DNA from: Clostridiales bacterium
GTDB taxonomy: Bacteria > Bacillota > Clostridia > Christensenellales > Borkfalkiaceae
Reading direction: 5' to 3'
DNA length: 28,821 nt
NCBI GenBank assembly: GCA_003503945.1
Contig: DOCD01000154.1
Coordinates: 1-28,821 of the forward strand
Shown here one piece after another: positions 5,714 through 28,821 of this stretch; position 1 is the stretch's first letter; each line of letters opens with the position of its first letter. The position numbers and the translations under genes were made by a program. Under the pieces are notes generated by a model. That model did no database searches. It worked only from the letters and a program-made list of their open reading frames with translations, and had not been told where the DNA came from.

Positions 5714-5723
5714 ATAAATTTTT

Positions 5724-5933
5724 TTAATATTCTTTTCTTCCAACCAATTCGTCAATAGAAATATCGAATACATCACTCAATATCCACAGATTGGAAAGTG
5801 TGGGTTCCATATTGTATTGTTCCCACTCGCTCACGCACTGTTGGGTTACCCCAATCATATTTGCAAGTTTTGCCTGCGACAATTTATTTTCAGTTCGGAA
5901 TAATTTTAAATTATCACCAAATTTATTATTCAT
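5724..5933 (-). CDS. Xre/Cro-C1 family HTH regulator (cassette 1)
   Basis: FGDNLKLFR...LSQAKLANMIGVTQQCVSEWE...EPTLSNLWILSDVFDISIDELVG. Start placed at ATG 5933. Confidence 0.9.
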   Translation of the reverse strand: MNNKFGDNLKLFRTENKLSQAKLANMIGVTQQCVSEWEQYNMEPTLSNLWILSDVFDISIDELVGRKEY

Positions 5934-5942
5934 AATATTATG

Positions 5943-5987
5943 ATACAATTATACTTGTTAAATTAGTTGACATACAATTATACTTGT
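5943..5987. promoter_or_regulatory. Paired operators in a divergent promoter (cassette 1)
   Basis: Exact 16-bp direct repeat ATACAATTATACTTGT at 5943-5958 and 5972-5987, each with an ACAA-N6-TTGT dyad. TTGACA at 5967-5972 abuts the second copy. Confidence 0.75.
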
Positions 5988-6029
5988 GATAATATGTTAT
6001 CAATAAATTATTTTTTAAGGAGAATTAAT

Positions 6030-6260
6030 ATGACAATTGAAGATGCTTTAATTAAGTATTATGGCGGTAGAGCAGAATATTCCTGCGGAAGACTTTATAG
6101 AATCGGAGATAAAAGAGTTGAATACTCTTGCGGACAATTAAGTTATGTAGGTAATGACAGAATTGATTATTCCTGCGGAAGACTATATCAAGTTGGCGGA
6201 AACCGCGTAGAGTACCAATCTAATGAAATTTATAAAATCGGCGGAATTGTAATCAGATAA
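6030..6260 (+). CDS. Small protein with four tandem 15-aa repeats
   Basis: AAGGAG SD at 6017-6022. Repeats: RAEYSCGRLYRIGDK / RVEYSCGQLSYVGND / RIDYSCGRLYQVGGN / RVEYQSNEIYKIGGI. Confidence 0.75.
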   Translation: MTIEDALIKYYGGRAEYSCGRLYRIGDKRVEYSCGQLSYVGNDRIDYSCGRLYQVGGNRVEYQSNEIYKIGGIVIR

Positions 6261-6310
6261 AACAAAAAATCACTATTGAAATCTAACCTTAGTAAAGTGA
6301 AAATATAAAA

Positions 6311-7063
6311 ATGTTCAGCAAAGACGTTTGCAATAAAATCGGATACTATGTATATCGCTTGGTTGATCCCAGAAACGGTCAGACATTTTACGTCGGTAAA
6401 GGAATTAATAACAGAGTATTCGACCATGTTGGTTATGCAGAAAAATTACTTGAAGAAGAAAGCGATGAATCAAAAACCGAAATTGAAAAAATATTAAAAT
6501 TATCTACAATTCACGCCATTAAAGATGCCGGGCTTGAAGTAATACATATTATCCAAAGATGGGGAATGACCGAAGACGAAGCTTTTTTAGTAGAATCTGC
6601 CGTTATGGATTGTTTTCCCGGACTTACAAACGCCCAAGCGGGACACGACGACGAGCACGGAGTGATTAATTGTAATACTTTACAAGTCTCACTTTCCTCA
6701 AAAGAATTTGAAGAACCCGAAAACATAGAAAATTTTATGATAATTAAGGTTAAACAGTCGATAGTCGAAGATAGAAGAAGTCGTTACGAGGCAACAAGGC
6801 GAAGCTGGAAAATTAACCCCAACGAAGCAAGCAAACACCCCTATATTCTTTCCGTTACCGACGGTATCGTCAAAGAGATTTATTATGCAAATAAATGGGA
6901 AAAAGTTACCGAAGGCATTTTAGAAGACATAGGCAGATATCAGTTCGAAGGTTACGTTGTTAATAACAAAAAAGTACGGGATAGATTTTTAAATAAACGA
7001 ATACCATCCAAATACTCAAAAAAAGGTATGGCATCCCCTTATCTGTACTGTAATAAAAAATAA
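6311..7063 (+). CDS. GIY-YIG nuclease, LEM-3/ANKLE1-like
   Basis: YYVYRLVDPRNGQTFYVGKG..NRVFDH and EDEAFLVESAVMD match the GIY-YIG LEM-3-like motifs; AT-rich sequence. Confidence 0.82.
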   Translation: MFSKDVCNKIGYYVYRLVDPRNGQTFYVGKGINNRVFDHVGYAEKLLEEESDESKTEIEKILKLSTIHAIKDAGLEVIHIIQRWGMTEDEAFLVESAVMDCFPGLTNAQAGHDDEHGVINCNTLQVSLSSKEFEEPENIENFMIIKVKQSIVEDRRSRYEATRRSWKINPNEASKHPYILSVTDGIVKEIYYANKWEKVTEGILEDIGRYQFEGYVVNNKKVRDRFLNKRIPSKYSKKGMASPYLYCNKK

Positions 7064-7071
7064 TATTTAGC

Positions 7072-7113
7072 GCAATAAAAACACCTTTCCCAAATAAGGG
7101 AAGGTGTTTTTAT
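7072..7113. terminator. Bidirectional terminator at the right border of the AT-rich cassette
   Basis: AAAAACACCTTTCCC-aaataa-GGGAAGGTGTTTTT between the convergent GIY-YIG and HNH genes. Confidence 0.8.
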
Positions 7114-7541
7114 TAAGTAAATTTTTTCAGGTAACTCAAATCGAGTTTCCATTCGGGCACGAGGTTGCGGCGGCGGTGCGCCTCGTTCGCCTCGCCAAGC
7201 GCCTTGCGGTATTCCGCGTAAGTGCAGCCGTTCACCTTCATAAAGTGTTCGCTTGCCCGTTCTTCCCCGCCCGTAAGCTGGGTGCGCCCTATGTGAATGA
7301 CCTCGTGGCAGCTTTTGCAGATTGCAACCACGTCCGCAAGCTTCTGTACGGCGTTCCTTTCGTCGTACTCCCACCTTTCGTGCGCTTCGAGCCGCCGCGT
7401 CGGCGCGCCGCAAATCATACATCTGCCGCCCGCGCGCGCATACGCCTCCCTACGCACAACGTCCCACTGCGCGGGAGATAAAATACTTCTTAAATTACTG
7501 TACCAGCAACTGTCGGGCACAAGTTCGAAATTTAGCTTCAT
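7113..7541 (-). CDS. HNH endonuclease-like protein
   Basis: CxxC (RCMICG), LEAHERW and CxxCHxxxH (CKSCHEVIH). Its start overlaps the upstream EEP stop (ATGA). Confidence 0.82.
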   Translation of the reverse strand: MKLNFELVPDSCWYSNLRSILSPAQWDVVRREAYARAGGRCMICGAPTRRLEAHERWEYDERNAVQKLADVVAICKSCHEVIHIGRTQLTGGEERASEHFMKVNGCTYAEYRKALGEANEAHRRRNLVPEWKLDLSYLKKFT

Positions 7542-8673
7542 AATAATTTGAATTGCAAAACTACGGGGTTATGGTCGCTGAACGCGTATTCTGTGTTCTG
7601 CGTGTTCACCGCAACGACCTCCACGTTATCCGAAACTATAAACCCGTCGATAGTGTTGGTATAATTTACTCCCTTTTCGTAAGGGATATCCGCGCCGCGG
7701 CAGGTGGCGTTGTCCTTATCCGCCGCAATGCGGAAGCCTTCCGCCAGCTCGGAATTGTGCAAAACCGAATTTTTAACCCATTCGGGCACATGCTGCTTGC
7801 TTTCGAAGTTAGACAGCGCCTTGTCGTCGCTGTCGAAGTAATCCGCGATAAGGCAGTGATTGAAGTCGCCGCCCGCAACCACGTAGTTGCCCTTTCCCCG
7901 CTCCTCCTTCAAAACGCCGTTGAGCATTTCAAGCTGACGGGCGCGCACCGTGCCGCCCTTATCGTACGCGGACATATGCAGATTAATCAGAACGAGAAAT
8001 TTGTCGCTGTCCTCTAACGGCAGATAGTGCACCGCAAAGCACCTGTCGAGGTCGAACAGCTTGTCTATAAAATTATCGGTAAGCGGAAAAGAACGGCGCA
8101 CCGCGCTATGTATATTATATTTCGAAAGCGTGAGTATTCCCGCGTTGGTCTTGCCTATCGGGTCGTTGAAAGGATAAAAAAGGTTTGCGGTATGAAAGTT
8201 TTCCGCATAGGTCGAGCTATGCCCTTCGGCAGCGGCGGAAAATACGCTTTTCATATTTATATCGTAGCTCCTGTCCGCCTTTTCGTCAACCTCCTGCAAA
8301 AAGTAAAAATCCGCGTCCATGCTCCTTATAATCCCCGCCTGACCCGTTACGTTTGTAAGAACGTCTCTTTCGTTAAACCCCTTAGCGTATTTGCCGACAA
8401 CCTCCGAGCCGTCGTCCATAACCCCCGTATCCATAAAAAAGGAATAGTCGGGCGAATACGCGCCGAAGCCGGCGTTATAGGTCATAATCGTGAAAGTCCC
8501 GTCTTTTGAAATTTTCTGTTCCTTTTCGTTTTCGGTTGTAAGAACGAAGTTATCCTCTATTCTGTAATACTGAGCGGCAACGTAGCCACGTAACCGCCGA
8601 TAATAAGTGCCGTCGCCCCGATAACGGAGGCAAGAACTATCGCAACTATTTTAATAATGCGTTTTGCTTTCAT
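7538..8673 (-). pseudogene. Endonuclease/exonuclease/phosphatase (EEP) family protein with an N-terminal membrane anchor; 1-nt frameshift near 8586
   Basis: Catalytic motifs MTYN, LQEVD, NLHMSAY, GGDFN, IDG and SDHNPV lie in ORF 7538..8485. The upstream ATG 8673 encodes a hydrophobic anchor (MKAKRIIKIVAIVLASV...GGYV) that stops after 38 aa. Adding one base restores YVAAQYYRIEDN... in frame; the span of 1136 nt is 3n-1. Confidence 0.75.
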
Positions 8674-8679
8674 AATTCA

Positions 8680-8708
8680 ATTATACAAACTTTAAAAGAA
8701 TTTTTCAA
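8680..8708 (-). promoter_or_regulatory. sigma-A promoter for EEP-HNH (predicted leaderless)
   Basis: TTGAAA (8708-8703), 17 bp, TATAAT (8685-8680), 6 nt, then ATG. Confidence 0.7.
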
Positions 8709-8715
8709 CAAATTA

Positions 8716-8768
8716 TTGACAACACGCAAAATTTGTACTATAATTAAATTGATATCAATATGATATCA
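8716..8768 (+). promoter_or_regulatory. sigma-A promoter of the SPFH gene with tandem TGATATCA boxes
   Basis: TTGACA 8716-8721, 17 bp, TATAAT 8739-8744; palindromic TGATATCA at 8750-8757 and 8761-8768. Confidence 0.8.
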
Positions 8769-8797
8769 TAAATTTTCTAAAAAGGGAGTTATTATTT

Positions 8798-9739
8798 ATG
8801 AACGAAGTTAAAGAAAAGGAATTAAAAGGCTTAAACGGCTGGCTTATGCTTATTGCGGTATTCGGCGCGCTTATAGTCGGCATTGCAATGCTCGTTATGG
8901 GTTTCATGCTCGCCGGCGGCGACGAAGTCCCCGAAAACCCCGGCTTTTTCGCCATGTCTGCCGTGGGGGCGGTAATCGCTTTCGTTTCGGTATTCTGCTT
9001 TATAGGCTTTAAGGTCGTAGCACCCAACGAAGCGATAGTTTTCACGCTGTTCGGAAAATACCACGGCACGCTTAAAAAGGACGGCTTTTATTTCGTCAAT
9101 CCTTTCTGCACGGCGGTCAACCCCGCGGCGGCGTTCGGCGGGCGCATGGGCAAAAAGCTTAGCCTTAAAGCAATGACTTTGAATAACGACAAACAGAAGG
9201 TAAACGACGAAGAGGGCAACCCCATTGAAATAAGCGTAGTCGTTATCTGGAAAATCCGCGATACGTCGAAAGCGGTTTTCGCGGTGGATAATTACGTAAC
9301 CTTTATTTCCACGCAGTGCGACTCCGCCATAAGGCAGGTTGCAAGGCAGTACCCTTACGACGTTTCGGAAAACGGCGACGAAAAATCGCTGCGCGGCTCC
9401 TCGCAGGAAATCGCGGAAGTTCTTAAAGCGGAGCTTCAATCCCGCGTGAACACCGCGGGCATAGAGATACTCGACGCGCGCATTAACAACCTTGCATACG
9501 CGCCCGAAATCGCGGCGGCTATGCTGCAACGCCAGCAGGCGGCGGCGATAATCGCGGCAAGGCAGAAGATTGTGGACGGCGCGGTTTCGATGGTGGATAT
9601 GGCGCTCAAAAAGCTTTCCGACAACAACATAGTAGAGTTGGACGACGAAAGAAAGGCGGCGATGGTATCCAACCTCCTCGTCGTGCTCTGCGGCAACCGC
9701 GACGCGCAGCCCATAGTCAACAGCGGTTCGATATACTAA
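8798..9739 (+). CDS. SPFH/band 7 domain membrane protein
   Basis: Two N-terminal TM helices, [29 protein letters not shown], and [21 protein letters not shown]. Confidence 0.92.
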
Positions 9740-9748
9740 ATAATTCTC

Positions 9749-9782
9749 AAATTTTTGTTTCTATTCTACGAAACAAAAATTT
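9749..9782 (+). terminator. AT-rich hairpin after the SPFH gene
   Basis: 13-bp perfect stem AAATTTTTGTTTC-N8-GAAACAAAAATTT. Confidence 0.55.
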
Positions 9783-9890
9783 CGAGATTTTCAGCGGCTC
9801 CACTTCTATGGCGCAAAGGCGCAGGTATGCGCAAATTGAGGCGTGCTGCGGAGGGTAACCCTCCTTGCACCGTTAATTTTACAATATTAT

Positions 9891-9953
9891 AGCCTTCCCC
9901 TTTCGGGGAAGGTGGATTGTTCGCAGCGCAGCGAGAACAAGACGGATGAGGTT
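9891..9953. repeat. REP-like double-hairpin unit
   Basis: CCTTCCCC-tttc-GGGGAAGG, then TTGTTC-N12-GAACAA, then GACGGATGAGG. Resembles clostridial REP-like units as I recall them; not searched. Confidence 0.55.
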
Positions 9954-10057
9954 ATATTCGACTTAACCCTCGAAAACCCCGAAGCGCTCGCTCCCTTCGT
10001 GACGTTGGAATAATATGCTTAAATATTACGGCGCGCCCGATAATACTCAGGTAGATA

Positions 10058-10249
10058 ATGGATAATAAAAAGAACGGCAAAAAACAAATCCCTTTGAGGA
10101 TTTCAGACGAGCTGTACACCGAGCTCGAGCGCTGGGCGGAGGACGAATTCCGCTCGGTGAACGGTCAGATAGAGTATCTTCTGACGCAAAGCGTCAAATA
10201 CCGCAGGAAAGGTGCGAGAGGGCTTACGACGGAACAAACCGAAAGTTAA
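10058..10249 (+). CDS. Arc-like ribbon-helix-helix DNA-binding protein
   Basis: [34 protein letters not shown], a family commonly encoded downstream of SPFH genes. Confidence 0.88.
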
Positions 10250-11724
10250 TCCCTCGCTTTCGCCACCGCTTTTTCCCAGCCGCTTAATAGCTTTGCGCGC
10301 GTTGGCTCAGGCATATTCGGGCTGAAAACGCCGTAACCGCTCGCCGTAGCCCTGATTTCGCCCTCGTCTTTCCAGAAGCCGCACGCAAGCCCCGCAAGGT
10401 ACGCCGCGCCCTGCGCCGTCGTTTCGACCGTTTGCGGGCGAACCACCTTTAAATCGGATATATCCGCCTGAAACTGCAATAAAAAATCATTCTTACTCGC
10501 CCCTCCGTCCACGTTGAGGCGGGTTATTTTTATGCCCGAATCGCGCTGCATCGCGCGCACTATATCTTCAACCTGATAGGCAATGCCCTCCAAAGCGGCG
10601 CGCACTATGTGCGCGCGAGTCGTGCCGCGGGTTATGCCCGTAATGAGCCCGCGCGCGTCCGCGTCCCAGTACGGCGCGCCAAGCCCCGTAAACGCGGGCA
10701 CAACGTACACCCCGCCGTTATCTTGAACCTTTAACGCGTAGCTTTCGCTTTCGTCTGCCGAGTTTATTATCCCGAGCCCGTCGCGCAGCCATTGCACCGC
10801 CGCCCCGCCGACGAATACCGAGCCTTCCAGAACGTACGGCGGCTTTTCCGTCAGTGTCGCGCCCAGAGTGGTTACGAGCCCGTTGCGGCTTTTTACCGCC
10901 CTTTCGCCCGTGTTCATAAGAAGAAAACAGCCCGTGCCGTAAGTGTTTTTCAAATCGCCCTCTTCGGTGCAGAGCTGCCCGAAGAGGGCCGCCTGCTGGT
11001 CGCCCACGGCGCCGCAAATGGGCACGGGCGAGCCGAACACGCTCTTGTGCGTATAGCCGAATTTACTGCCGCTCGGCTTGACCTCGGGCAGCATACTGCG
11101 GGGTATACCGAAAAGCTTTATAAGCTCGTCGTCCCACTCCAAGGTATGTATGTTGAACAGCATTGTGCGCGCGGCGTTGGTGTAGTCGGTGGCGAATATT
11201 TCGCCCTTCGAAAGCTGCCACATAAGGAAAGTGTCGACGGTGCCGAACAACAGCTCGCCCCTTTCCGCGCGTTCGCGCGCGCCCGACACGTTATCCAAAA
11301 TCCATTTGATTTTGGTTGCGGAAAAGTACGCGTCGGGGATAAGCCCCGTCTTATCGTAAATCAAATCCGAATACTTTTCTTTAAGCTTTTCGCAGTAGTC
11401 CGCCGTCCTGCGGCACTGCCATACTATAGCGTTGTATATGGGCTTGCCCGTAGCCTTATCCCATACGAGCGTGGTTTCGCGCTGGTTTGTTATGCCCGCC
11501 GCCGCGATATCCTCCGCGGATATATCCGCGCGAACCAACGCTTCGGCAATAACAGCCATCGTTGAGCCCATAATATCCTGCGGCGAATGCTCGACCCAGC
11601 CCGCCTCGGGATAAATCTGCTTGAACTCCTGCTGGGCCATACAGACTATGCGCGCCGATTTGTCGAATACGATTGCGCGCGAACTCGTCGTGCCCTGGTC
11701 TATCGAAAGTATATATTTTCCCAT
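10246..11724 (-). CDS. glpK: Glycerol kinase
   Basis: [67 protein letters not shown]. Confidence 0.97.
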
Positions 11725-11730
11725 AAACCC

Positions 11731-11759
11731 ATTATAACACGGCTTTTTTAAAATTTCAA
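11731..11759 (-). promoter_or_regulatory. sigma-A promoter for glpK (predicted leaderless)
   Basis: TTGAAA (11759-11754), 17 bp, TATAAT (11736-11731), 6 nt, then ATG; no SD. Confidence 0.7.
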
Positions 11760-11787
11760 TACCCCGAACGCATAAAAAACAGCGGCG

Positions 11788-12000
11788 TCAGCCGCTGTCG
11801 TTAAGTCCGAGCAAGTAATCGACGCTCACGCCGAAAAACACCGCCATATCCGCAAGAAGGGATAAGGGCGGCTCGCGCTGCTCCTTTTCGTAATGCAGAT
11901 AGGTTACGCTGTTTATGCCAAGCCTTTCTGAAAGCTGCTTTTGCGTGAACCCCCTGTCCTCGCGCAATTCCTTTAACCTTTCCCCCAAAATTGTTTTCAT
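11788..12000 (-). CDS. Xre/Cro-C1 family HTH regulator (cassette 2)
   Basis: LGERLKELREDRGFTQKQLSERLGINSVTYLHYEKEQREPPLSLLADMAVFFGVSVDYLLG. Confidence 0.92.
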   Translation of the reverse strand: MKTILGERLKELREDRGFTQKQLSERLGINSVTYLHYEKEQREPPLSLLADMAVFFGVSVDYLLGLNDSG

Positions 12001-12016
12001 AACACTACTTCCTTAC

Positions 12017-12072
12017 TTGACATATTACCATTTTGGTAATATAATTATTCAGTAACTACCATTTTGGTAGTT
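12017..12072 (+). promoter_or_regulatory. Perfect sigma-A promoter with two palindromic operators (cassette 2)
   Basis: TTGACA 12017-12022, 17 bp, TATAAT 12040-12045. ATTACCA-ttt-TGGTAAT (12024-12040) fills the spacer; AACTACCA-ttt-TGGTAGTT lies at 12054-12072. Confidence 0.82.
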
Positions 12073-12097
12073 ACTAAATAATTCAAAGGAGTTAGTT

Positions 12098-12868
12098 ATG
12101 GAAAATGAAAATTTAAAAGAAGATCTGCACGAAGATGCGACTTCGCTCTATACGGGCGGGGCTGTCGTAAGAAAACTGATAAGCTGGGCAGCGTTTATCG
12201 TCAGCCTTATCACCCTGACGCTTGCAAACCCCGCAATGGTATGCTGGAAGCAGCGCTGGGAATGCAAACACACTTATATAGACGGCAAAAGACTTGTGTT
12301 CGACGGAAAAGCCATGCAGCTTTTCGGCAAGTACATAGTATGGATATTGCTGTCTTTGGTAACGCTCGGCATATATCTTTTCTGGCTTTCCGTCAAAAAG
12401 AAAAAGTGGATAACAAAGCACACGCATATAGTTACCGACGAAAACGCGCAGGAATACGCCGAAGCGGAAAGCAAAACTTCCGTCGTTGAAAATATGTCCC
12501 CCGAGGAGCGCGCCGCATACGAGGAAAAACTGTTCACAAAAAAGAGACAAGCGCACAGCTTCGGGCTCGTCGCACTGATACTGACTTTCGTTATGCCACC
12601 GTGGGGATTTATAATGGGCATTGTCGGGATTATTACGGGCGCGATTTATAAAGAAAAATTCGGGCTAAGGGCAAGCTGCGTTGCGGTAAGCATTGTCGGT
12701 GTTGCGATAATCATAGTGCTTTCGTTTATACTTCAAGCGCCGAAAATTCCGTTTTTTATCGCCGCAGGAGTGTTTGCTGCGGTTGCGCTAATCGCCTGTA
12801 TCGCCGTTTTCGTGTTTACGGGCAAGTGGGAAAGCGTAAAAATGAAAGAAAAAACCGAGCAGCAATAG
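12098..12868 (+). CDS. Multi-pass membrane protein with a DUF898/YjgN-like N-terminal unit
   Basis: AAAGGAG SD and several hydrophobic segments. KHTYIDGKRLVFDGKAMQLFG...WITKHTH resembles small DUF898-like membrane proteins (from memory). Confidence 0.7.
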   Translation: MENENLKEDLHEDATSLYTGGAVVRKLISWAAFIVSLITLTLANPAMVCWKQRWECKHTYIDGKRLVFDGKAMQLFGKYIVWILLSLVTLGIYLFWLSVKKKKWITKHTHIVTDENAQEYAEAESKTSVVENMSPEERAAYEEKLFTKKRQAHSFGLVALILTFVMPPWGFIMGIVGIITGAIYKEKFGLRASCVAVSIVGVAIIIVLSFILQAPKIPFFIAAGVFAAVALIACIAVFVFTGKWESVKMKEKTEQQ

Positions 12869-12898
12869 AGAAAAGGAGGAAATTATTCCTCCTTTTCT
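12869..12898. terminator. Bidirectional terminator between convergent units
   Basis: AGAAAAGGAGGA-aattat-TCCTCCTTTTCT, 12-bp stem. Confidence 0.75.
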
Positions 12899-13035
12899 TC
12901 TATAAACTGTTTATGAAATTTTGCTATTTCCCTTTTGTCGATAGAAACCTTCTGATAGAGCCCCGTACATTCGTTGGCGCACACGCACTCCTCGAAAAGG
13001 TCGTGAACCTCGTTTTTGGATTTATGCTTTTCCAT
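12883..13035 (-). CDS. 50-aa small protein absent from the ORF track
   Basis: My translation is MEKHKSKNEVHDLFEECVCANECTGLYQKVSIDKREIAKFHKQFIEEKEE*. It starts 21 nt after the M60-like gene stop. No clear SD. Confidence 0.5.
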   Translation of the reverse strand: MEKHKSKNEVHDLFEECVCANECTGLYQKVSIDKREIAKFHKQFIEEKEE

Positions 13036-13056
13036 ACTAAAAGTTTACGCAGAAAT

Positions 13057-18678: not shown

Positions 18679-18689
18679 ATTTTTCTCCG

Positions 18690-19592: not shown

Positions 19593-19605
19593 ATGTAAAC
19601 CCGAA

Positions 19606-20955: not shown

Positions 20956-20961
20956 ACACTT

Positions 20962-21327: not shown

Positions 21328-21329
21328 AA

Positions 21330-21887
21330 TTATTTCCTTATTCTGTAAACGAGCATATCCACAGCCGTCTGCGTTTTGAAAATAAGATAGTCGTACGGGA
21401 AGAAAATTATCGTTCCTCCCAGAAAAATGAACCAGTAAATATAGGTGTTCAGAAATTGATAAAAGGAATTATCCGCGCTGTCGCCGCCGAGTATTCCGCC
21501 GAAGATAAGTATATACGCGACCCACAGCGTGAAATCGAACCACACCGTTTTGACGGCGAGCGCAATCCACCTGTTTATTTTATATTTGACCTGCAAACAG
21601 TTGATTAACGGGTGCAGCCCGAAAAACATTATAAAGGGCACCAAATCCCAGAAGCGGACCGCCGCGCCCATTACTATTGCAAGAATAACCGTTCCGAGAT
21701 ACGCGAGAAAGCCGCCCCTTATAAACTGTTTTGAAAGGGGCACCATAAGCGCGACCATGCCGAAAAGATAGCCCGAGGCAAGGAGCACGTTGCTCCAGAA
21801 CCCCAGCAAAAGGCACACCACCGCCACGGCGCACGATATTGCGGACAGCGCTATTTCAAACGAACGGGAATACTTGCGTTTACTCAA
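21330..21887 (-). CDS. Uncharacterised multi-pass membrane protein
   Basis: About five to six hydrophobic segments; tight spacing with its neighbours. Confidence 0.8.
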   Translation of the reverse strand: MSKRKYSRSFEIALSAISCAVAVVCLLLGFWSNVLLASGYLFGMVALMVPLSKQFIRGGFLAYLGTVILAIVMGAAVRFWDLVPFIMFFGLHPLINCLQVKYKINRWIALAVKTVWFDFTLWVAYILIFGGILGGDSADNSFYQFLNTYIYWFIFLGGTIIFFPYDYLIFKTQTAVDMLVYRIRK

Positions 21888-21902
21888 CTTTTCACCACGC
21901 CG

Positions 21903-22523
21903 TCAGCGGCAGCAAGTGTTGCAAAGGCAGTTTATGCACATGTTTATATAGCAACACTCTATGCAGTTAGCGCAGAAATTCCCGCCCATCTGATTATCTG
22001 CCTGAGAGTTCATAGTCTGCCCCTCGTACACGGTCTGCTGTTCGCCCGCAGCCGAACGGCTCGCGTCGTAATTGACCTTTTCGTTGAGCTTTTTGTATGC
22101 TTCCTTGTACTTTTCGTTATCGGGTTCCAACTGAATGGCGATTTCAAGCTGTTTTTTGCTTTCGTTTATCCAGTTTTTGCGGTAGAACACAACGCTTTGA
22201 AGGTAGTGCCATCTGCCGCCGCGCTCGTTAAAGCTATCCAGAACGCGCTGCGCTTCGGCGATATTGCCGTCCTTTATAAGCTCCTCCACGCGCGTGAACG
22301 AGCTGTCGCCGTCCTCCGCGGCGGCGTTTTCGGAAAGCTCGCGCATTAAGTCGTTATACGCGTTTTCAAGCTGCGTGAGCATTTTCGCCGCGTGGTTGCC
22401 GACCTCCCCGTCCATAAACCGCTCTTCGAGATATTTCGCCCTCAGCGTTTCATAAGCCGAAGTTACGTCCTCTTTTGTCGCCCCCTCCGAAAGTCCGAAA
22501 AGTTCAAGATTTTTTTTGTTCAT
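21903..22523 (-). CDS. J-domain-like plus TPR protein with a QMGG plus Cys-rich tail
   Basis: AAGGAG SD before ATG 22523. J-like LELFGLSEGATKEDVTSAYETLRAKY(LEE); TPR WHYLQSVVFYRKNWINESKKQLEIAIQLEPDNEKY; tail QMGGNFCANCIECCYINMCINCLCNTCCR. Confidence 0.85.
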   Translation of the reverse strand: MNKKNLELFGLSEGATKEDVTSAYETLRAKYLEERFMDGEVGNHAAKMLTQLENAYNDLMRELSENAAAEDGDSSFTRVEELIKDGNIAEAQRVLDSFNERGGRWHYLQSVVFYRKNWINESKKQLEIAIQLEPDNEKYKEAYKKLNEKVNYDASRSAAGEQQTVYEGQTMNSQADNQMGGNFCANCIECCYINMCINCLCNTCCR

Positions 22524-23382
22524 TTTTAGCTCCTTTTTTCTTGCACTCGCATTTGACAAGACTTCTTGTCTTTAAAGGTATTCCCCTTAATATTATATTG
22601 TCGGTCAAGTCGTGATTGAATTTGAAATTGATCTCCGAAAGTCTTTGCCGCATATCGGCGAAAAGGCTGTCGAACATAAAGTTTATTTCATCGCGGTTTG
22701 CGGCTACCGCCTCCGCCTTCGAAGGAAGCTTATACGCATTGTACAGCGCGTTGTATCTGCCTTTTTTTACGTCCTTGTCGTAATCGTCCAAAGCGTCGGC
22801 GAGATATACCCACTTGCCCAAATCGTAAAACAGCGCTTCCGTCGCGGGGGTGGAAAATTCCTTTAACGCGTACGCCGAAAGCCGCTGCATCATAACCGCC
22901 GTAGGCTCGCACGCCATATCGATTATCGCGCAGCCCGCTTTTTCGAGCTCCGCCTGCGCCCTCATCTGTTCTTCTATGATATCCACAGCCTGTTTATGCC
23001 TTTTCAGCGCGCGTTTCAAACCCTTTTTGTAGAGGTGGCGCAAAACCCCCTTTTTGTCGCCGTCCGCCTTGTCGTCGCAGAGCTTATAATACGCAAGCGC
23101 GGTATTGATACAGCCCAAAAGCACGGTGGTATCGTCCTTCGAAGCAATCGGGCGGCGTTTGAACCAGTGAATGGCGCAGCGCGCCTTTTTGATTTCGACG
23201 TCCTCGTGCCTTATGTTATGAATAAGCGCGGACATAAACGCCATATCGTAGGTCAGGGCGGTGCGCGCCCTCTGCCCGCAGCCCGAGCCTATACTTTTAC
23301 ATAACCCGCAGTACAAAGCCTGATACAGCTTTTCGTCCTTTTTAAAAAGATAGGGCGAATCGGGCTGAATATAACCGAACAT
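22504..23382 (-). CDS. DUF5685-like protein
   Basis: GGAGG SD, then MFGY...YCGLC...ALTYDMAF, an N-terminus I recognise as DUF5685 (from memory). Asp-rich motifs DDKAD and DALDDYDKD. Its 3' end overlaps the next gene by 20 nt. Confidence 0.8.
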   Translation of the reverse strand: MFGYIQPDSPYLFKKDEKLYQALYCGLCKSIGSGCGQRARTALTYDMAFMSALIHNIRHEDVEIKKARCAIHWFKRRPIASKDDTTVLLGCINTALAYYKLCDDKADGDKKGVLRHLYKKGLKRALKRHKQAVDIIEEQMRAQAELEKAGCAIIDMACEPTAVMMQRLSAYALKEFSTPATEALFYDLGKWVYLADALDDYDKDVKKGRYNALYNAYKLPSKAEAVAANRDEINFMFDSLFADMRQRLSEINFKFNHDLTDNIILRGIPLKTRSLVKCECKKKGAKNEQKKS

Positions 23383-23515
23383 ATGCCTCCGGCTCACGCA
23401 AATCTTTTGCAATGCAAAACATTTGCCGTGAATTTATTTGTCGTAAATTTTCTTAACGGGCGAAATCAATCCGCCCTTGAAAATTTTCGGCATTATTATT
23501 TATATAATTTGGGCA

Positions 23516-24514
23516 TTAATTTTGATAAAACCCTATTTTTTTATAAACTTTACTGAGCGTTTTATTCGCCGTAAACGCGGCGCGTTCCGCGCCCGACTTC
23601 AACACACCGTCGAGGTACGCCTTGTCGGCGAGCAGCCTTGCCTGTTCGCACTGAATGGGCGCAAGCTTATCGGCGACCGCCTCCCCCACGGCAAGCTTGA
23701 AATCGCCGTAGCCCTTGCCCGCGAAGTCCGCCTCCGCCTCCGCCATGCTTTTATCCGTGAATACCGAATAAATAGAAAGCAAATTGCTCACGCCGGGTTT
23801 ATTTTCGGGGTCGAATTTTATTACCGCTTCGCTATCGGTTACGGCGCGTTTGAATTTACGAATAACGGTATCCTTGTCGTCCGAAAGGAATATGCTGCCG
23901 TTCGCGTTTTCCGCCGACTTCGACATCTTTTTGGACGGGTCCAAAAGGTCGCAGATCTTCGCGCCGGCTTTGACGTAAACGCATTCCGGCACGGTAAACG
24001 TGGGCGAATATGCGTTGTTGAAGCGCTGGGCGATATCCCGCGCGATTTCCACGTGCTGGGTCTGGTCCTTGCCGACGGGCACGTAAGCCGTCTGATATAA
24101 GAGGATATCCGCCGCCATTAAAACGGGGTAATCCATAAGCCCCATATTTATATTATCGGCGTGTTTTCTGCTCTTATCCTTAAACTGCGTCATTCTTTCC
24201 ATTTCGCCGACGTAGGTGAACGTGTTTAAAACCCAGCAAAGCTCGGCATGCGCGGGCACGTGCGACTGTACGTATAAAACGCACTTTTCGGGGTCTATTC
24301 CGCAGGCTATATACAGCGCGGCGAGTTCGAGCGTGCGCCGCCTGAGCTCCGCGGGGTTCTGCCTGACGGTAATCGCGTGCATATTCGCGATTGCGTAAAA
24401 GCAATTGTAATCGTTTTGCAGCGCGACGAAATTTTTTACCGCGCCCAGATAATTGCCTATCGTTAAACTGTTTGTCGGCTGAACCGCCGAATACAGATTT
24501 TTATTTTCTTCCAT
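23516..24514 (-). CDS. trpS: Tryptophan--tRNA ligase
   Basis: QPTNSLTIGNYLGA (HIGH-like), QSHVPAH, YPVLMAADIL, VPVGKDQTQH, KMSKS. Confidence 0.97.
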   Translation of the reverse strand: MEENKNLYSAVQPTNSLTIGNYLGAVKNFVALQNDYNCFYAIANMHAITVRQNPAELRRRTLELAALYIACGIDPEKCVLYVQSHVPAHAELCWVLNTFTYVGEMERMTQFKDKSRKHADNINMGLMDYPVLMAADILLYQTAYVPVGKDQTQHVEIARDIAQRFNNAYSPTFTVPECVYVKAGAKICDLLDPSKKMSKSAENANGSIFLSDDKDTVIRKFKRAVTDSEAVIKFDPENKPGVSNLLSIYSVFTDKSMAEAEADFAGKGYGDFKLAVGEAVADKLAPIQCEQARLLADKAYLDGVLKSGAERAAFTANKTLSKVYKKIGFYQN

Positions 24515-24537
24515 AAGTTTTACACAACCTCACAATA

Positions 24538-24566
24538 ATGATAACATATCCGTACCCAAAAAGCAA
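24538..24566 (-). promoter_or_regulatory. Probable trpS promoter
   Basis: TTGCTT (24566-24561), 17 bp, TATCAT (24543-24538); 23 nt from the -10 box to the ATG. Confidence 0.55.
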
Positions 24567-24702
24567 AGATTTTTTTGACGAATAACCCATAATCACCAAA
24601 CTTGCCCCCGTTTAACACCTCAAATACACGAAAACGGCGCCGCTTTTTACAAAAATCACGCACAATAATTAACCCGCGTTTTTAGTTGCCAAAATAAGGA
24701 AT

Positions 24703-25746
24703 ATGGCGTATAATGTGATTAATATGGATAACTGGGTATTAAAAGGCGTGAAAAACCTTGTCAACGAACCGGCGGAAACGCTCGAAGTTTCTCCGACGCA
24801 GGTCAAGGTGAAAATTACGCATCTTCTCATTTCCAATTTCGACGTACTGCTGTATAACGGCGATTTAACCGCGAATTACCCCAAAACTATCGGCAGATTT
24901 GCCGTGGGGCTGGTTACCGAAGTCGGCGAAAACTGTTACGGCGTAAAGAAAGGCGAACGCGTCTATCTCGAATCGGCGAAGTCGTGCGGGGTCTGCTATA
25001 ACTGCAAGAGCGGCAAACGCGACCTGTGCGACGATATTCAGCTTGCCGGAAGGGATTTCGACGGGTTTATGCGCGACTTCGTCGTGTGCGAATATACCGA
25101 CGTATCTCCCTTGCCCGACGCGGTGGACAACTTGAAGGCGCTGTGCATAGAAATGGTCGGCATTGCGGAAAATATCTATGATAAACTTAATCTGTCCGCG
25201 GGTCAGAGGGTTGCCGTAATCGGTTGCGACTGTTTGGGCAATATCATCGCGCAGGTTCTGCAATATCATAAGGTCATTCCGATAGTTATCGACAATACGC
25301 CCGAAAATCTGGAAAAGGTTAAAAAATGCGGCGTTTACTATACGTTTGCCGCCGACGACGAGGTCGTGCGCAACGTATCGGAAGCAACCAACGGCAACAT
25401 GTGCGACGCGGCGATATATTCCTCCGCCTCCCGCCTGCCCGTATCTCTTCCGCCCAGACTCGTGGGCAACGGCAAAGCGCTGGTTTTAAGCGGCTCTACT
25501 TCGATGCACAGCTCGGTTGACGCGCGCGACATTCTCGAAAAGAACCTTACCGTGTTCGGCGTAACCAACGCGGCGAACTACACCGATTCGGTAATAAACA
25601 TGCTGTTGCACGGCGCGGTTAACGTGGATTGCTTCGATAAAGAAATTTTAAGCCAGTTCGACCCTGCGGATATACTCGCGCGGTTCAGCGAGGGCTTCAA
25701 TACGACCGACAGCGGAAAACTGACCGTTTTGAAGATGATTTTCTGA
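24703..25746 (+). CDS. Medium-chain dehydrogenase/reductase (zinc ADH-like) fold protein with a degenerate catalytic site
   Basis: GroES-like VKVKI...GLVTEVGENCYGVKKGERV and structural Zn motif C-x2-C-x2-C-x7-C. Catalytic Cys and GHE are replaced (ISNFD, GRF). Confidence 0.82.
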   Translation: MAYNVINMDNWVLKGVKNLVNEPAETLEVSPTQVKVKITHLLISNFDVLLYNGDLTANYPKTIGRFAVGLVTEVGENCYGVKKGERVYLESAKSCGVCYNCKSGKRDLCDDIQLAGRDFDGFMRDFVVCEYTDVSPLPDAVDNLKALCIEMVGIAENIYDKLNLSAGQRVAVIGCDCLGNIIAQVLQYHKVIPIVIDNTPENLEKVKKCGVYYTFAADDEVVRNVSEATNGNMCDAAIYSSASRLPVSLPPRLVGNGKALVLSGSTSMHSSVDARDILEKNLTVFGVTNAANYTDSVINMLLHGAVNVDCFDKEILSQFDPADILARFSEGFNTTDSGKLTVLKMIF

Positions 25747-25766
25747 CGCGCGGAACTATCCGTGAT

Positions 25767-27182
25767 ATGCGCAAACTTACAAAATTATTATTTTCATTGA
25801 ATTTTCTATACGTTTTACTTATTGCGGCGGAAACTGCCGCAATAATTTTTTTATGCCTGTATCTGCCCGCCTTTATGTCGGTTGCGGCGGCTTTTGCGGG
25901 CGTGTGGCTTGTCACGGTTATCGCCGCCGTCTGCGCCGTGGTGAGCGGGGGCTCCGCCGAAACCAACTGCGCGGCAATCCTGTTTATCGTGGCGCTGCCC
26001 GTCGCGGGCGCGGTTATCTACTTTATTACGCGTGCGGGGAAACGAAAATGCTGCCGCCTTAAAGTTACGGGCGGCGTTTCGGTAAACGGCGAGGAACGCG
26101 CGGCGCAACTGTACTGCGGCACGGGCGGCGCGGACTACGACAAAGCGGTATACTTTAAAAGCGGCGCGGACTACTTTTCCACCCTGTTTTCGGAAATCGA
26201 ACGGGCGCAAAAATACGTCTGCCTCGAATACTTTATCGTCTGCCGCGGCAAAATTTTCGCAAGGCTCGTATCCGCGCTGCGCACGGCGAAAAGCCGCGGC
26301 GCGGAAATCAAAATAATAATCGACGGGATAGGCTCGGCGTTCAAGGCGGGTCGGCGGGAATACAAAACGCTGAAAACGCTGGGCGAGGTGAAAATTTTCA
26401 ACAGGCTCTCCCCGCTTGTCTGCACGGGCATAAACAACCGCGACCACAGAAAAATAGCCGTCGTCGACGGCAGGGTCGCGTTTACGGGCGGCTTCAACAT
26501 TGCGGACGAATACGCGAATATCACTAGCCCTCTGGGGTATTGGAAGGATACGGGGGTCGCGCTGTACGGCTGCGCGGCGAAGGTGTTCGGCGGAATGTTT
26601 TTCGCAATGTGGAACGACGGGTACGAAATGCGCGCGGAGTCGGGCGGAAAATACCGCTGCATCCCCTTTTGCGACAGCCCGCCCTCCCGCACGGCTTACT
26701 GCGAAAACGCATACCTTACCGCAATCAGCGCCGCAAAACGGCGGGTGCATATATTCACGCCCTACTTCTGCACGGGCGAAAAGCTGACCGCCGCGCTCGT
26801 GAGCGCGGCGGCACGAGGCGTCGACGTGCGGATTATTATCCCGCATATCCCCGACAAGAAATACGCATTCGAGCTTTCCAAAGCCTGCGCCGCGGAGCTT
26901 TCCTTGCGCGGGGTGAAATTCTACGAATATACCCCCGGATTTATGCACGCGAAAAGCATGGTCTGCGACGACAAGCTGTATATAGGCAGCTACAATATGG
27001 ATATCCGCTCTATGCGTTTGAATTACGAATGCGGAGTCGTGCTGGAAGGCAAGGTCTGCGAACAGGCGGAGCGCGACTTCTGGGAATGCGTGCGGCTGTC
27101 CGCGCCGTTTACGGAGGGAAAGCTTTCACCGCCGCGGCGGGCGTATCGTTTTATAATAAAGCTGCTTGCACCGCTTATGTAA
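25767..27182 (+). CDS. cls: Cardiolipin synthase (phospholipase D family)
   Basis: N-terminal TM helices and two HKD motifs (RDHRKIAVVDG...GGFNI; FMHAKSMVCDD...GSYN). Confidence 0.92.
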   Translation: MRKLTKLLFSLNFLYVLLIAAETAAIIFLCLYLPAFMSVAAAFAGVWLVTVIAAVCAVVSGGSAETNCAAILFIVALPVAGAVIYFITRAGKRKCCRLKVTGGVSVNGEERAAQLYCGTGGADYDKAVYFKSGADYFSTLFSEIERAQKYVCLEYFIVCRGKIFARLVSALRTAKSRGAEIKIIIDGIGSAFKAGRREYKTLKTLGEVKIFNRLSPLVCTGINNRDHRKIAVVDGRVAFTGGFNIADEYANITSPLGYWKDTGVALYGCAAKVFGGMFFAMWNDGYEMRAESGGKYRCIPFCDSPPSRTAYCENAYLTAISAAKRRVHIFTPYFCTGEKLTAALVSAAARGVDVRIIIPHIPDKKYAFELSKACAAELSLRGVKFYEYTPGFMHAKSMVCDDKLYIGSYNMDIRSMRLNYECGVVLEGKVCEQAERDFWECVRLSAPFTEGKLSPPRRAYRFIIKLLAPLM

Positions 27183-27194
27183 GCCGTTTCGTTC

Positions 27195-27223
27195 TTGACA
27201 AAATGTAATTTAAAAAGTATAAT
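27195..27223 (+). promoter_or_regulatory. Perfect sigma-A promoter
   Basis: TTGACA 27195-27200, 17 bp, TATAAT 27218-27223. Confidence 0.85.
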
Positions 27224-27243
27224 GTAATTATAATAATATATAT

Positions 27244-27523
27244 AGGCAAGCTGTCATAAATTAGAACAACCTTAGCGGCGTCTTTTCGTTGCTTTCCGTA
27301 CGCGGCTCCGTTCGGAGTACGTCTTTGTACGCCTCAGTCGCCGCGCGCACAAATCAATCGAAAATGCGCACGCTAAGGCGCGAAGCGGTTTTAACGGAGC
27401 AAATTTGCCGATTAGACGAGGAAATGACCGCAGATAATCCATAGACGGATTATCAAGGGCTTTGACGAAGTATAAGCCCAAATTTGCCCGTTAAAACTTG
27501 CTCGAACTTATAACAGCTTGCCT
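27244..27523 (+). other. About 280-nt structured element with paired ends (MITE-like or structured leader/ncRNA)
   Basis: Ends 27244-27269 and 27498-27523 pair at 22/26. Internal stems: 27270-27277/27371-27378, 27388-27407/27479-27497 and 27433-27454. Confidence 0.7.
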
Positions 27524-27556
27524 GCGTTACTCATTACGCAACAATAAGGTGAATAT

Positions 27557-28156
27557 ATGAAATTTGTGATTGCATCCGACGTACACGGTTCGGCAAAGTA
27601 CTGCAAGCTTTTAATCGACGCGTTCAGGCGCGAAAATGCGGATAAGCTTCTGCTACTCGGCGATATCCTCTACCACGGGCCGAGAAATCCGCTGCCCGAC
27701 GGATATTCGCCCAAAGAGGTTGCGGAAATGCTTTCGGAAATAAAGGAAAAAATTATTGCGGTAAGCGGGAACTGCGACGCGGAAATCGACGCAATGATTT
27801 TACCCTTCCCGCTTTCGGACTACGCGGCGGTGTTTGCCGACGGAATTAACTTTTATATGTCGCACGGGCACCGCGCCGTGCCGCCCCTCTGCGGCGGCGA
27901 CGTGTACCTTACGGGGCACACCCACGTGCCGCTGAAAGAAGCGGGGCAGTATATCCACCTCAACCCCGGCTCGGTTTCGCTGCCCAAAGAAAACAGCAAA
28001 CGCGGCTATATACTTTACGACAACCGCAGGTTTGTTTTCAAAACGCTCGAGGGCGAACAGTACGACAGCCTCGAAGTGACGAGCGGAATTCCGCAGAGCG
28101 CGCCCCGCGCCCCCGCCGTCCGCCGCAAGGTAGTGCGCAGAAGAAGATTGATTTAA
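27557..28156 (+). CDS. yfcE: YfcE-family metallophosphoesterase
   Basis: SDVHGS, LGDILYHGPRN, GNCD, SHGH, TGHTH, NPGSVSLPK. Confidence 0.92.
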   Translation: MKFVIASDVHGSAKYCKLLIDAFRRENADKLLLLGDILYHGPRNPLPDGYSPKEVAEMLSEIKEKIIAVSGNCDAEIDAMILPFPLSDYAAVFADGINFYMSHGHRAVPPLCGGDVYLTGHTHVPLKEAGQYIHLNPGSVSLPKENSKRGYILYDNRRFVFKTLEGEQYDSLEVTSGIPQSAPRAPAVRRKVVRRRRLI

Positions 28157-28160
28157 GTAT

Positions 28161-28199
28161 AAGCCCTCTCGGAACCATCAAACGATTCCGAGGGGGCTT
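28161..28199. terminator. Terminator hairpin between convergent yfcE and Cys-rich genes
   Basis: AAGCCCTCTCGGAA-N11-TTCCGAGGGGGCTT (one G-U pair). Confidence 0.7.
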
Positions 28200-28423
28200 A
28201 TTATTTCAAAAATTTTTTTTAAATCCGCTTCCGCTTCGTCGAACCTCTGAGGCGAAAGCTCGTATTCGACTTTGCGTTTGTACCACTCGCCGCAGCTGTT
28301 TTCGCGGTCGATAATTTCCTCGCGTAAAGCACAGTAATATTTCTTTTTTCTGAATAATCTATACCATCCGCAGTCGTAAAGCGTTTTACAGTTTCCGCAA
28401 TATTTACATATCTTCGTTGTCAT
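28178..28423 (-). CDS. Small 4-Cys protein B (C-x2-C-x21-C-x12-C)
   Basis: GGAG 10 nt before ATG 28423; MTTKICKYC...YYC...NSCGEW followed by a C-terminal helix. Confidence 0.65.
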   Translation of the reverse strand: MTTKICKYCGNCKTLYDCGWYRLFRKKKYYCALREEIIDRENSCGEWYKRKVEYELSPQRFDEAEADLKKIFEIISPLGIV

Positions 28424-28676
28424 CGCGCTCACACTCCAGCAATTTGCGTAATTGAGACAGTTCCGTCAAAAAATTGTTGAGATTTATTTTTATAAGTCTG
28501 TTGCTCCGACGGCTTTTTGTAGCGGGCACAAATTTGTCGCAGGTTTCGTGAATATTCACATCTGCGACCTTTTTCGAACACCAACCGCACTTCGCCTTAT
28601 TAAAGCTTTTTACGCCCTTTGTGTAATATCTGTCTAAATTCTTACATCTGAAACATTGATTGCTACCGTTTTCCAT
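28404..28676 (-). CDS. Small 4-Cys protein A (C-x2-C-x21-C-x12-C)
   Basis: AAGGAG SD; QCFRC...GWC...ETCDKF followed by a Leu-rich C-terminal helix. Confidence 0.72.
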   Translation of the reverse strand: MENGSNQCFRCKNLDRYYTKGVKSFNKAKCGWCSKKVADVNIHETCDKFVPATKSRRSNRLIKINLNNFLTELSQLRKLLECERDDNEDM

Positions 28677-28695
28677 TTTGTTACTCCTTAATAAA

Positions 28696-28766
28696 ATAGG
28701 TATTACCTATATATAATCTACCATAGGTAGTGCCTATAAGTCAAGTATTTTATAGGCATTTCCTAT
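28696..28766. promoter_or_regulatory. Three ATAGG-N5-CCTAT operators in a divergent intergenic region (cassette 3)
   Basis: Perfect dyads at 28696-28710, 28723-28737 and 28752-28766. Confidence 0.78.
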
Positions 28767-28788
28767 AAAATAAAATTAAGGAGTTAAT

Positions 28789-28821
28789 ATGATTACACTT
28801 GAACAAATTCAAAAAAGATTA
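28789..28821 (+). CDS. 5' end of a probable Xre-family regulator (truncated by the window edge)
   Basis: AAGGAG SD, then MITLEQIQKRL. Only 11 codons are visible, so the Xre identity is inferred from helix-1 style and context. Confidence 0.5.
   Translation, partial: MITLEQIQKRL

Follow-up and report, generated by a model that had tools for sequence, protein, structure and literature searches.

Three divergent Xre cassettes on one contig

The window analysed here, a 28,821-nucleotide stretch of DNA from a Clostridiales bacterium (Borkfalkiaceae), is the entire contig C66 of assembly G000, a metagenome-assembled genome (MAG) of 194 contigs (1.56 Mb, 46% GC, 65% complete). It holds three cassettes, in each of which the gene of a predicted repressor of the Xre type (Xre1, Xre2 or Xre3) lies divergent from one or two small genes that we call cargo. 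The Xre proteins of the cassettes are 65–70 aa long and consist of the helix-turn-helix (HTH) domain only. The cargo promoters are of the consensus sigma-A type, with one dyad in or beside the −35/−10 spacer and a second just downstream, and the dyad centres are spaced 27–31 bp apart in all three cassettes. A preliminary description of this DNA had proposed three such dyad sets; all three lie where it had put them, overlapping face-to-face promoters. Scanning the assembled 1.56 Mb showed that each operator motif is clustered at its own cassette only, which fits dedicated local regulators.

Identity among Xre1, Xre2 and Xre3 is ~20%. On this ground a single repressor family shared by all three cassettes was rejected; the proteins belong to three different Xre lineages. 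Counting HTH genes genome-wide gave 33 in 1.56 Mb, from which 0.6 would be expected in 28.8 kb instead of the three Xre genes present (Poisson P = 0.024, post hoc); this enrichment is mild and barely exceeds the Xre density of the genome. To assess the dyads, recurrence of each pattern was compared with 2000 shuffles. Neither PADLOC nor PHROGs gave a match for cargo 1a, cargo 2, CysA, CysB or a 50-aa open reading frame (ORF) at 12883–13035. Our search of sequencing runs listed no RNA runs containing the locus, and window DNA was detected in metagenomes of rat and mouse gut from 11 studies.

Cassette 1 and its nuclease-like cargo

Cassette 1 is an insertion at 5561–7110 with a GC content of 34%, compared with 50–56% in its flanks. 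The closest relative, G122 (DNA identity 89–91%), has instead ~57 bp with one terminator hairpin, and against it the borders of the 1.5-kb insert are clean. Similar terminator-like hairpins stand on both sides of the insert in G000: one at 5685–5706, on both strands, 3′ of the Xre1 gene, and a bidirectional one of similar sequence at 7085–7104, between cargo 1b and a convergent gene. The latter (7113–7541, minus strand) encodes 142 aa and matches phrog_5200 ‘HNH endonuclease’ (4e-41) with no Pfam match; as it adjoins nrdD across the genus, we regard it as a resident gene outside the cassette. Read mapping in independent runs gave no metagenome contig joining across cassette 1, and gaps in cover in runs X6, X7 and X9 are uninformative.

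Xre1 (5724–5948, minus strand) is a predicted repressor of ~69 aa whose HTH_3 match (E 6e-13, 49.1 bits) lies above the Pfam cut-off (cut-offs 23–30). Translation probably begins at ATG 5933, which has no Shine-Dalgarno sequence and is the residue at which orthologues begin. Two candidate operators occupy 5943–5987, with ACAATTATACTTGT at 5945 and 5974. They are part of an exact 16-bp direct repeat, ATACAATTATACTTGT, at 5943 and 5972 (29 bp apart), each copy of which is a 14-bp near-palindrome (6/7 pairs) around ACAA-N6-TTGT. The two copies flank the −35 element TTGACA of cargo 1 (5967–5972), and on the minus strand each operator contains TATAAT, a candidate −10 of Xre1's own promoter; read by eye, this promoter has its TATAAT inside the proximal operator and a leader of ~8 nt lacking a Shine-Dalgarno sequence. 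The bare ACAA-N6-TTGT pattern was reached in 310 of the 2000 shuffles, so the short dyad alone is not significant. The exact 16-bp repeat and the conservation among orthologues are, however, not due to chance: the dyads are conserved in G016, G019, G086, G113, G075 and at locus L190.

The first cargo gene, cargo 1a (6030–6260, plus strand), encodes 76 aa with four 15-aa repeats and has no family match. Cargo 1b (6311–7063, plus strand) has matches in PADLOC, the PDB and Pfam. Its residues 2–248 align with positions 6–254 of the 256 in PADLOC profile PDLC04031 (7e-56) and residues 3–247 with 12–259 of PDB 9u75_A (5e-38); it also matches Pfam LEM-3_GIY-YIG (7.7e-11) and phrog_5356. This similarity to PD-T4-3/CMoRE is full-length, covering an N-terminal GIY-YIG domain and a C-terminal sensing domain. 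Judged by these alignments, cargo 1b is a member of the PD-T4-3/CMoRE family, a known family of anti-phage type IV restriction nucleases that the preliminary description had missed. A 2026 characterisation of PD-T4-3 (PMC12923530) gave it the name CMoRE and describes a type IV restriction endonuclease of the GIY-YIG class, which in E. coli reportedly cuts no DNA other than that with 5-hydroxymethylcytosine (5hmC) or glucosyl-5hmC (ghmC). Cleavage of such DNA and protection against T-even phages are functions known for the E. coli proteins only.

None of the 120 genus genomes searched yielded a CMoRE homologue, and a related-locus search found no relatives of cargo 1b in genome contigs. The closest homologue anywhere (64% identity) lies on a metagenome contig beside spoIVA. 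There it stands behind an Xre1-type repressor with the same operators, and a 239-aa gene replaces the repeat protein; other CMoRE homologues adjoin WYL regulators. Cargo 1b shares with PD-T4-3/CMoRE of E. coli ECOR68 (PDB 9U75, 9U7U) a full-length alignment, the GIY-YIG domain and the modified-cytosine-sensing region. However, whereas PD-T4-3/CMoRE is described as a single-gene system, cargo 1b and its 64% homologue are each the last gene of a predicted Xre1-gated operon, in both cases preceded by a variable small gene.

Cassette 2 and its membrane cargo

Xre2 (11788–12000, minus strand) is an HTH-only predicted repressor of 70 aa (HTH_19, E 1e-14; 52.7–54.6 bits, over the Pfam cut-offs of 23–30). 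Divergent from it, cargo 2 (12098–12868, plus strand) encodes a polytopic membrane protein of 256 aa with a DUF898/DUF6693-like N-terminal segment (DUF898, 39.0 bits, cut-off 28; DUF6693, 35.8 bits, cut-off 31), the matches being confined to residues 65–118 and the remainder of the protein having no assignment. The region between them (12017–12075) contains the cargo-2 promoter and two candidate operators. Here, TACCATTTTGGTA occurs at 12026 and 12057, 31 bp apart, a recurrence seen in no more than 1 of the 2000 shuffles. Positions 12017–12045 form a perfect TTGACA/TATAAT promoter, whose 17-bp spacer is taken up exactly by the first copy and contains TTACCATTTTGGTAA. The second lies just downstream of the −10 within a 25-bp perfect palindrome (12051–12075). 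By eye, Xre2's own promoter is an extended −10, TGnTAATAT, that overlaps the first operator.

Cassette 2 is syntenic in G122, G126 and G017. In these three genomes the operators are 100% conserved, although across the four species the cargo 2 protein is only 55–84% identical and the remaining spacer has diverged; this contrast amounts to a phylogenetic footprint for Xre2. On a contig of ~97% identity from run X9, an independent rat-gut metagenome, position 12093 is joined to 12801 via TGATG, so that almost the entire cargo-2 ORF is gone and Xre2 and both operators are kept.

Cassette 3 and the CysA/CysB pair

Of Xre3 (28790–28821, plus strand) the window has the first 11 codons, MITLEQIQKRL, because the contig ends there; no other contig overlaps its last 20–55 bases, and none continues the gene. 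A third Xre gene had been proposed from these codons, and full-length orthologues elsewhere bear this out: at the orthologous yfcE-cysB-cysA locus of G009 (87% DNA identity), the HTH protein is complete at 69 aa, begins MITLEQIRERL and matches an HTH profile built from the window's own genome at 1.3e-15. Three candidate Xre3 operators, ATAGG-N5-CCTAT, lie within 28696–28766 (at 28696, 28723 and 28752, spaced 27 and 29 bp), an arrangement seen in none of the 2000 shuffles. They overlap the cys promoter on the minus strand (TTGACT at 28744–28739, TAGATT at 28720–28715).

The cargo consists of CysA (28404–28676, minus strand; 90 aa), which has four invariant cysteines, an RYYTKG motif and a long C-terminal helix, and its paralogue CysB (28178–28432, minus strand), a small 4-Cys protein whose gene overlaps cysA by 29 nt. 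The four cysteines are invariant across 36 sequences of the family. Clustering at 50% identity divides this family, which is unnamed, into 948 clusters, including one CysA–CysB fusion. Searching Pfam at E values up to 1 with the 36 family members returned no consistent family, and an atlas lead to DUF6472 (cosine 0.86) was not borne out by Pfam. Foldseek against the PDB gave nothing at E ≤ 0.001 for CysA (best E 0.3 or worse). For the N-terminal domain of the AF2 model (pLDDT 88), the ten best VIA rows are all high-potential iron–sulphur proteins (HiPIPs) or HiPIP-like [4Fe-4S] subunits of glycyl-radical enzymes (Z 3.5–4.6). As modelled, CysA and CysB would thus resemble HiPIPs weakly but consistently; a zinc site is equally possible. 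A predicted complex of the G009 Xre3 orthologue with CysA scored 0.00, which says nothing on an anti-repressor role.

Upstream of yfcE, between a perfect promoter and the gene, lies a structured element of ~280 nt (27243–27523) that is a dispersed repeat. Further copies occur on another contig of the same genome (C194:7612–7892, 92% identical) and at other loci in G014, G069 and G122; the element is absent at this locus in G122, and no Rfam family matches it.

The preliminary description had called the cargo AT-rich, which is true of cassette 1 and of cysA/cysB (40–42% GC versus 55% in yfcE); cargo 2, at 47% versus 57%, is mildly lower only. Terminators had been said to close each cassette, and terminator-like hairpins do so: a scan called those at 5685–5706, 7085–7104 and 11778–11799, and two more, at ~12872–12899 and 28160–28200, were spotted by eye only.

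Control regions and cargo vary independently among relatives

Relatives were drawn from the Christensenellales, a lineage of small genomes, as MAGs of 1.3–2.3 Mb, in which genes were taken from crude ORF calls. In five genus genomes, Xre1 has orthologues with an unchanged GVTQQCVSEWE helix, and the ACAA-N6-TTGT dyad occurs two or three times at 28–29 bp spacing. Their cargo, by contrast, varies: a Zn-ribbon membrane protein, a lipoprotein, a 313-aa membrane protein, a 202-aa protein or none. Xre2 orthologues were found at 80 loci in as many records, 58–97% identical and with an unchanged recognition helix. In 38 of the 80, ACCA-N3-TGGT occurs twice, ~31 bp apart, at the same upstream position, and about 60 have at least one copy. 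Only five have a cargo2-like divergent gene; the others have diverse unrelated genes, and many of the ones inspected by eye encode a hydrophobic or lipoprotein-like N-terminus. The neighbouring FGGY kinase is retained in only 6 of the 80.

At Xre3-type loci it is the specificity that changes. We fetched 30 genus loci and found 26 divergent Xre/CysA pairs, most with two or three palindromes around TTGACx; a mouse-gut MAG has the same divergent arrangement. Within the Xre3 clade the scaffold (MITLEQIQ...LPALDTLANLCKLLDVDANYILCQE) is conserved, the operator varies from module to module, and the residues of the recognition helix track the operator in six classes, each with one operator class. Thus, the helix KQPT(I/V)(G/R)QY goes with ATAGG-N5-CCTAT in five genomes (G110, G125, G111, G080 and, by its operator, the window), KQSQISCY with ATATCT-N3-AGATAT in three genomes, and (S/T)QS(A/T)IAHY with ATGAT-N5-ATCAT in another three. 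CQQAISSY is paired with ACTACCAA... and SQSNISHY with ATGCCCA..GGCGAT, each in two genomes, and VHHSAIGQY with AGCAATGCT in G009. In G009 the cargo is 82% identical to the window's CysA, yet repressor class and operator differ, indicating that cargo and control region have recombined. Modules that reside in the same genome are always of different class: four loci in G000 (C66, C152, C97, C121), three in G111, four in G047 and two each in G125 and G080.

Beyond the window, G000 has further small Xre genes (C11:8838–9449, C108:9262–9857, C45:4751–5706, C57:3458–4020, C86:125–328, C111:4431–4810 and C166:916–1125). Palindromic repeats lie upstream of them, for example of the GTCACTATAATGAC type on C108 and TAGGTCA-N2-TGACCTA on C57, and most are divergent from small genes without known function.

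Presence, absence and insertion hot spots

G122 has an empty site at cassette 1 and lacks cassette 3 downstream of yfcE, so at two of the three sites the closest relative has no cassette; the syntenic cassette 2 is the exception. The gap between nrdD and the HNH-like gene, where cassette 1 lies, is a hot spot with differing content among genomes. It holds an Xre1 orthologue with the Zn-ribbon membrane protein in G016, an Xre1 orthologue alone in G019, another Xre with a CysA homologue in G009, a CysA homologue in G020 and an HTH–membrane fusion in G011 and G015, and it is empty in G017. The fusions (L153, G011:C3; L154, G015:C4) are 293–297 aa long and join an N-terminal Xre HTH through a proline/alanine-rich linker to a membrane region.

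Tandem or dispersed repeats of ~135 bp (‘...IRPRLRRGHFPRQGKATIASGFPFGEAVTSASK’) lie just beyond yfcE in G122 (L011:549–815) or beyond Xre3 in G009 (L012:1076–1246), with similar ones on C111 of G000, and may mark an insertion hot spot. Two Xre–CysAB modules directly follow ribosomal-protein operons, rplJ-rplL in the mouse-gut MAG (L158:1655–2758) and rpoA-rplQ in G009 (L012:1–743). Such sites may reflect a preference for positions behind strong terminators.

The remaining window genes are housekeeping genes: Rex, a ROK kinase, dUTPase, NrdG, NrdD, an Exo_endo_phos protein, an SPFH protein, the FGGY kinase, a giant surface protein, DUF445, an RNA methyltransferase, DUF5685, a class I tRNA synthetase, an alcohol dehydrogenase, a PLD-type synthase and YfcE. 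Close relatives of one window protein occur in Candidatus Coproplasma, Borkfalkiaceae, Scatosoma and ‘uncultured Christensenella’. Between nrdG and the end of nrdD, a ~120-bp stretch (3116–3238) is a multi-copy dispersed repeat with at least five more copies, 78–82% identical, on C10, C28, C48 and C59, and many in genus relatives. Rfam gave no matches in the window at gathering scores.

No phage, integrase, recombinase or transposase gene was found in the 28.8-kb window, as the preliminary description had said for phage and integrase genes. The cassettes have no integron-like or transposon end repeats in common, similar flanking terminator hairpins occurring at cassette 1 only; with a recombinase likewise absent, an integron-like or transposon mechanism is unsupported. 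As mobility genes are absent and the sites behave as hot spots, the cassettes may spread by homologous or illegitimate recombination with flanking DNA.

A model of self-contained, repressor-gated units

These observations suggest a model, which we hold to be probably correct, in which each locus is a self-contained, terminator-insulated unit with an HTH-only Xre gene back-to-back with a sigma-A cargo promoter, and in which repressor/operator and cargo parts are exchanged independently as accessory islets at intergenic hot spots across the Christensenellales, among gut MAGs of the Borkfalkiaceae/‘Coproplasma’ type. Xre dimers would occupy the two or three dyads, whose centre spacing of 27–31 bp corresponds to about three helical turns and so places them on one face of the DNA. 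Bound there, they would block RNA polymerase and hold the cargo off. As the dyads also cover the repressor's own weak promoter, the repressor would limit its own level, and such negative autoregulation is predicted from the overlap of repressor promoters and operators. Each of the three repressors would act on its own locus only. With terminators on both sides, each unit would be transcriptionally self-contained and functional wherever inserted. On this model, cargo 1 (the small repeat protein and the CMoRE/PD-T4-3 nuclease) would serve anti-phage defence, and cargo 3 would be a translationally coupled 4-Cys pair, possibly binding an Fe-S cluster.

Several points weigh against this interpretation. 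The promoters given for the Xre genes, picked out by eye, are weak or non-canonical. A sensor or cleavage domain is lacking in the repressors, and neither an inducer nor an anti-repressor was identified, so that a ‘switch’ is itself an assumption; for HTH-only proteins of this kind, relief would have to come from dilution, proteolysis or a further partner. Because the relatives are MAGs, absence elsewhere in a genome is uncertain, although the empty sites lie on contiguous contigs. The X9 deletion rests on a single contig at depth 4. Operators common to orthologues are partly inherited by descent, and, given some ten or more specificity classes, chance alone would often make the modules of one genome differ.

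The alternative that survives best, though we think it unlikely, is that three unrelated, ordinary local regulators happen to share a contig and that the layout is the usual build of small Xre autoregulators, with no modular system behind it. The ~20% identity of the Xre proteins, the unrelated cargo, the post hoc P of 0.024 for three of 33 HTH genes in 28.8 kb and the synteny of cassette 2 in G122, G126 and G017 all agree with it. It does not account, however, for one repressor/operator pair being linked to differing cargo and neighbours in many genomes, for the same cargo pair being tied to many specificities, or for clean empty sites in the closest relative.

It is less probable still that the cassettes are addiction or toxin–antitoxin-like modules, with a harmful cargo (the nuclease or the Cys pair) to which the Xre protein is the transcriptional antidote, so that its loss is lethal. 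Such modules would explain the diversified specificities and the unlike co-resident copies. The nuclease among the cargo, the strong consensus cargo promoters opposed to weak repressor promoters, and weak HTH matches to restriction-modification (R-M) controller proteins and CapH also fit. Yet the layout is divergent rather than bicistronic, and neither CysA/B nor cargo 2 falls into a recognised toxin family. The E. coli CMoRE is reported to be specific for 5hmC/ghmC (PMC12923530) and, cutting only such DNA, need not harm the host. Moreover, Xre1 occurs without cargo in G019, as does Xre2 in X9.

An origin of the cassettes by decay of prophage or integrative-element immunity regions seems very unlikely: the HTH proteins match phage repressor PHROGs, cargo 1b matches phrog_5356 and cassette 3 has a three-operator layout, but the 28.8 kb are free of phage, integrase, recombinase and transposase genes, the 1.5-kb insert has clean borders, the repressor faces no second HTH gene, and CysA/B and cargo 2 have no PHROG match. 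The idea that the dyads are RNA hairpins in cargo leaders or terminators, which could appeal to the second cassette 2 dyad, whose 25-bp perfect palindrome would be transcribed in the cargo-2 leader, can be given hardly any credence, as the first dyads, being in promoter spacers, precede any transcript, the half-sites are conserved across species beyond pairing potential, and operator class tracks recognition-helix residues.

Discussion

The self-contained, repressor-gated units proposed here have their nearest mechanistic analogues in R-M controller (C) proteins with their C-boxes and in lambdoid operator regions, although by their features they belong to neither. C proteins such as C.PvuII, C.Esp1396I and C.AhdI, very small HTH dimers of the Xre type, bind paired dyads next to the gene of a restriction nuclease. 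They fall into families that differ in operator specificity, and they move together with mobile defence genes (PMC2175313, PMC3488213). Cassette 1, alone of the three, likewise has a small HTH protein and paired dyads beside a restriction nuclease gene, and Xre1 and Xre2 weakly match the PADLOC model ‘Control_protein’. However, a C gene is co-transcribed with its nuclease, which it first activates, and belongs to a type II system with a methyltransferase, whereas Xre1 is divergent and no methyltransferase lies in or beside cassette 1. The cassette 1 nuclease appears to be of type IV, and the same repressor types also drive non-nuclease cargo here. As the cargo promoter is already consensus, repression only would be expected, unlike with activating C proteins.

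With lambdoid CI/Cro regions the cassettes share back-to-back promoters under two or three spaced dyads for a Cro/C1-type HTH, and specificity diversifies as it does in heteroimmune phages. They differ in that a second, antagonistic HTH, a C-terminal domain for oligomerisation or cleavage and a prophage are all absent, and the first cargo genes (cargo 1a, cargo 2 and CysA) contain neither an HTH nor any other Pfam DNA-binding domain. The cassettes do not therefore imply bistability, and ‘phage-switch-like’ behaviour as proposed in the preliminary description is not supported, since the repressor faces no second HTH gene. They do not match type II toxin–antitoxin systems with an Xre antitoxin of the HigA/MqsA type either, given the divergent layout and no toxin family in Pfam or PADLOC. 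The XRE-cupin repressors of Pseudomonas (Trouillon et al.) are reportedly dedicated Xre repressors, each silencing one neighbouring operon; these act on metabolic operons and have a cupin domain as sensor, whereas the cassette repressors are HTH-only.

The earlier idea of a family of modular switches is supported as to modularity, since the same Xre1 or Xre2 pair occurs with different cargo; as to one family it is not, in view of ~20% identity and unrelated cargo. Its further claim of differing specificities agrees with the Xre3 clade, where helix and operator vary in step, and with the unlike co-resident copies. Elsewhere, such diversifying, private specificity typifies phage immunity regions, R-M controllers and toxin–antitoxin systems. 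We tentatively raise the possibility, speculative at this stage, that the Xre3-type repressor with CysA/CysB is a new conflict-driven module of gut Christensenellales: a multi-copy module (up to five per genome) of possibly Fe-S-binding pairs behind private, co-diversifying mini-repressors without cross-talk, serving defence, exclusion or addiction and perhaps triggered by redox state or oxygen.

Our search for literature combining Xre, defence systems and divergent repressors found nothing. As far as the sequences indicate, four points would be new here: cargo and control modules are exchanged independently, helix and operator form a series on a single scaffold, an unnamed 4-Cys family goes with this series, and CMoRE occurs in a repressor-gated form. 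The last would be a regulated form of a nuclease, PD-T4-3/CMoRE, that has been described as a single-gene system. For the 4-Cys family (~950 clusters at 50% identity), the predicted gating by Xre repressors, which is always present, offers a handle on function. The minimal repressors of 65–70 aa, with at least six to ten helix/operator classes on one scaffold, form a natural series for the evolution of DNA specificity and are candidate orthogonal genetic parts for Firmicutes. Overall, the cassettes point to a way in which gene turnover may proceed without mobility genes: a small-genome gut lineage would gain and lose accessory genes, including an anti-phage nuclease, as pre-insulated, repressor-gated units.

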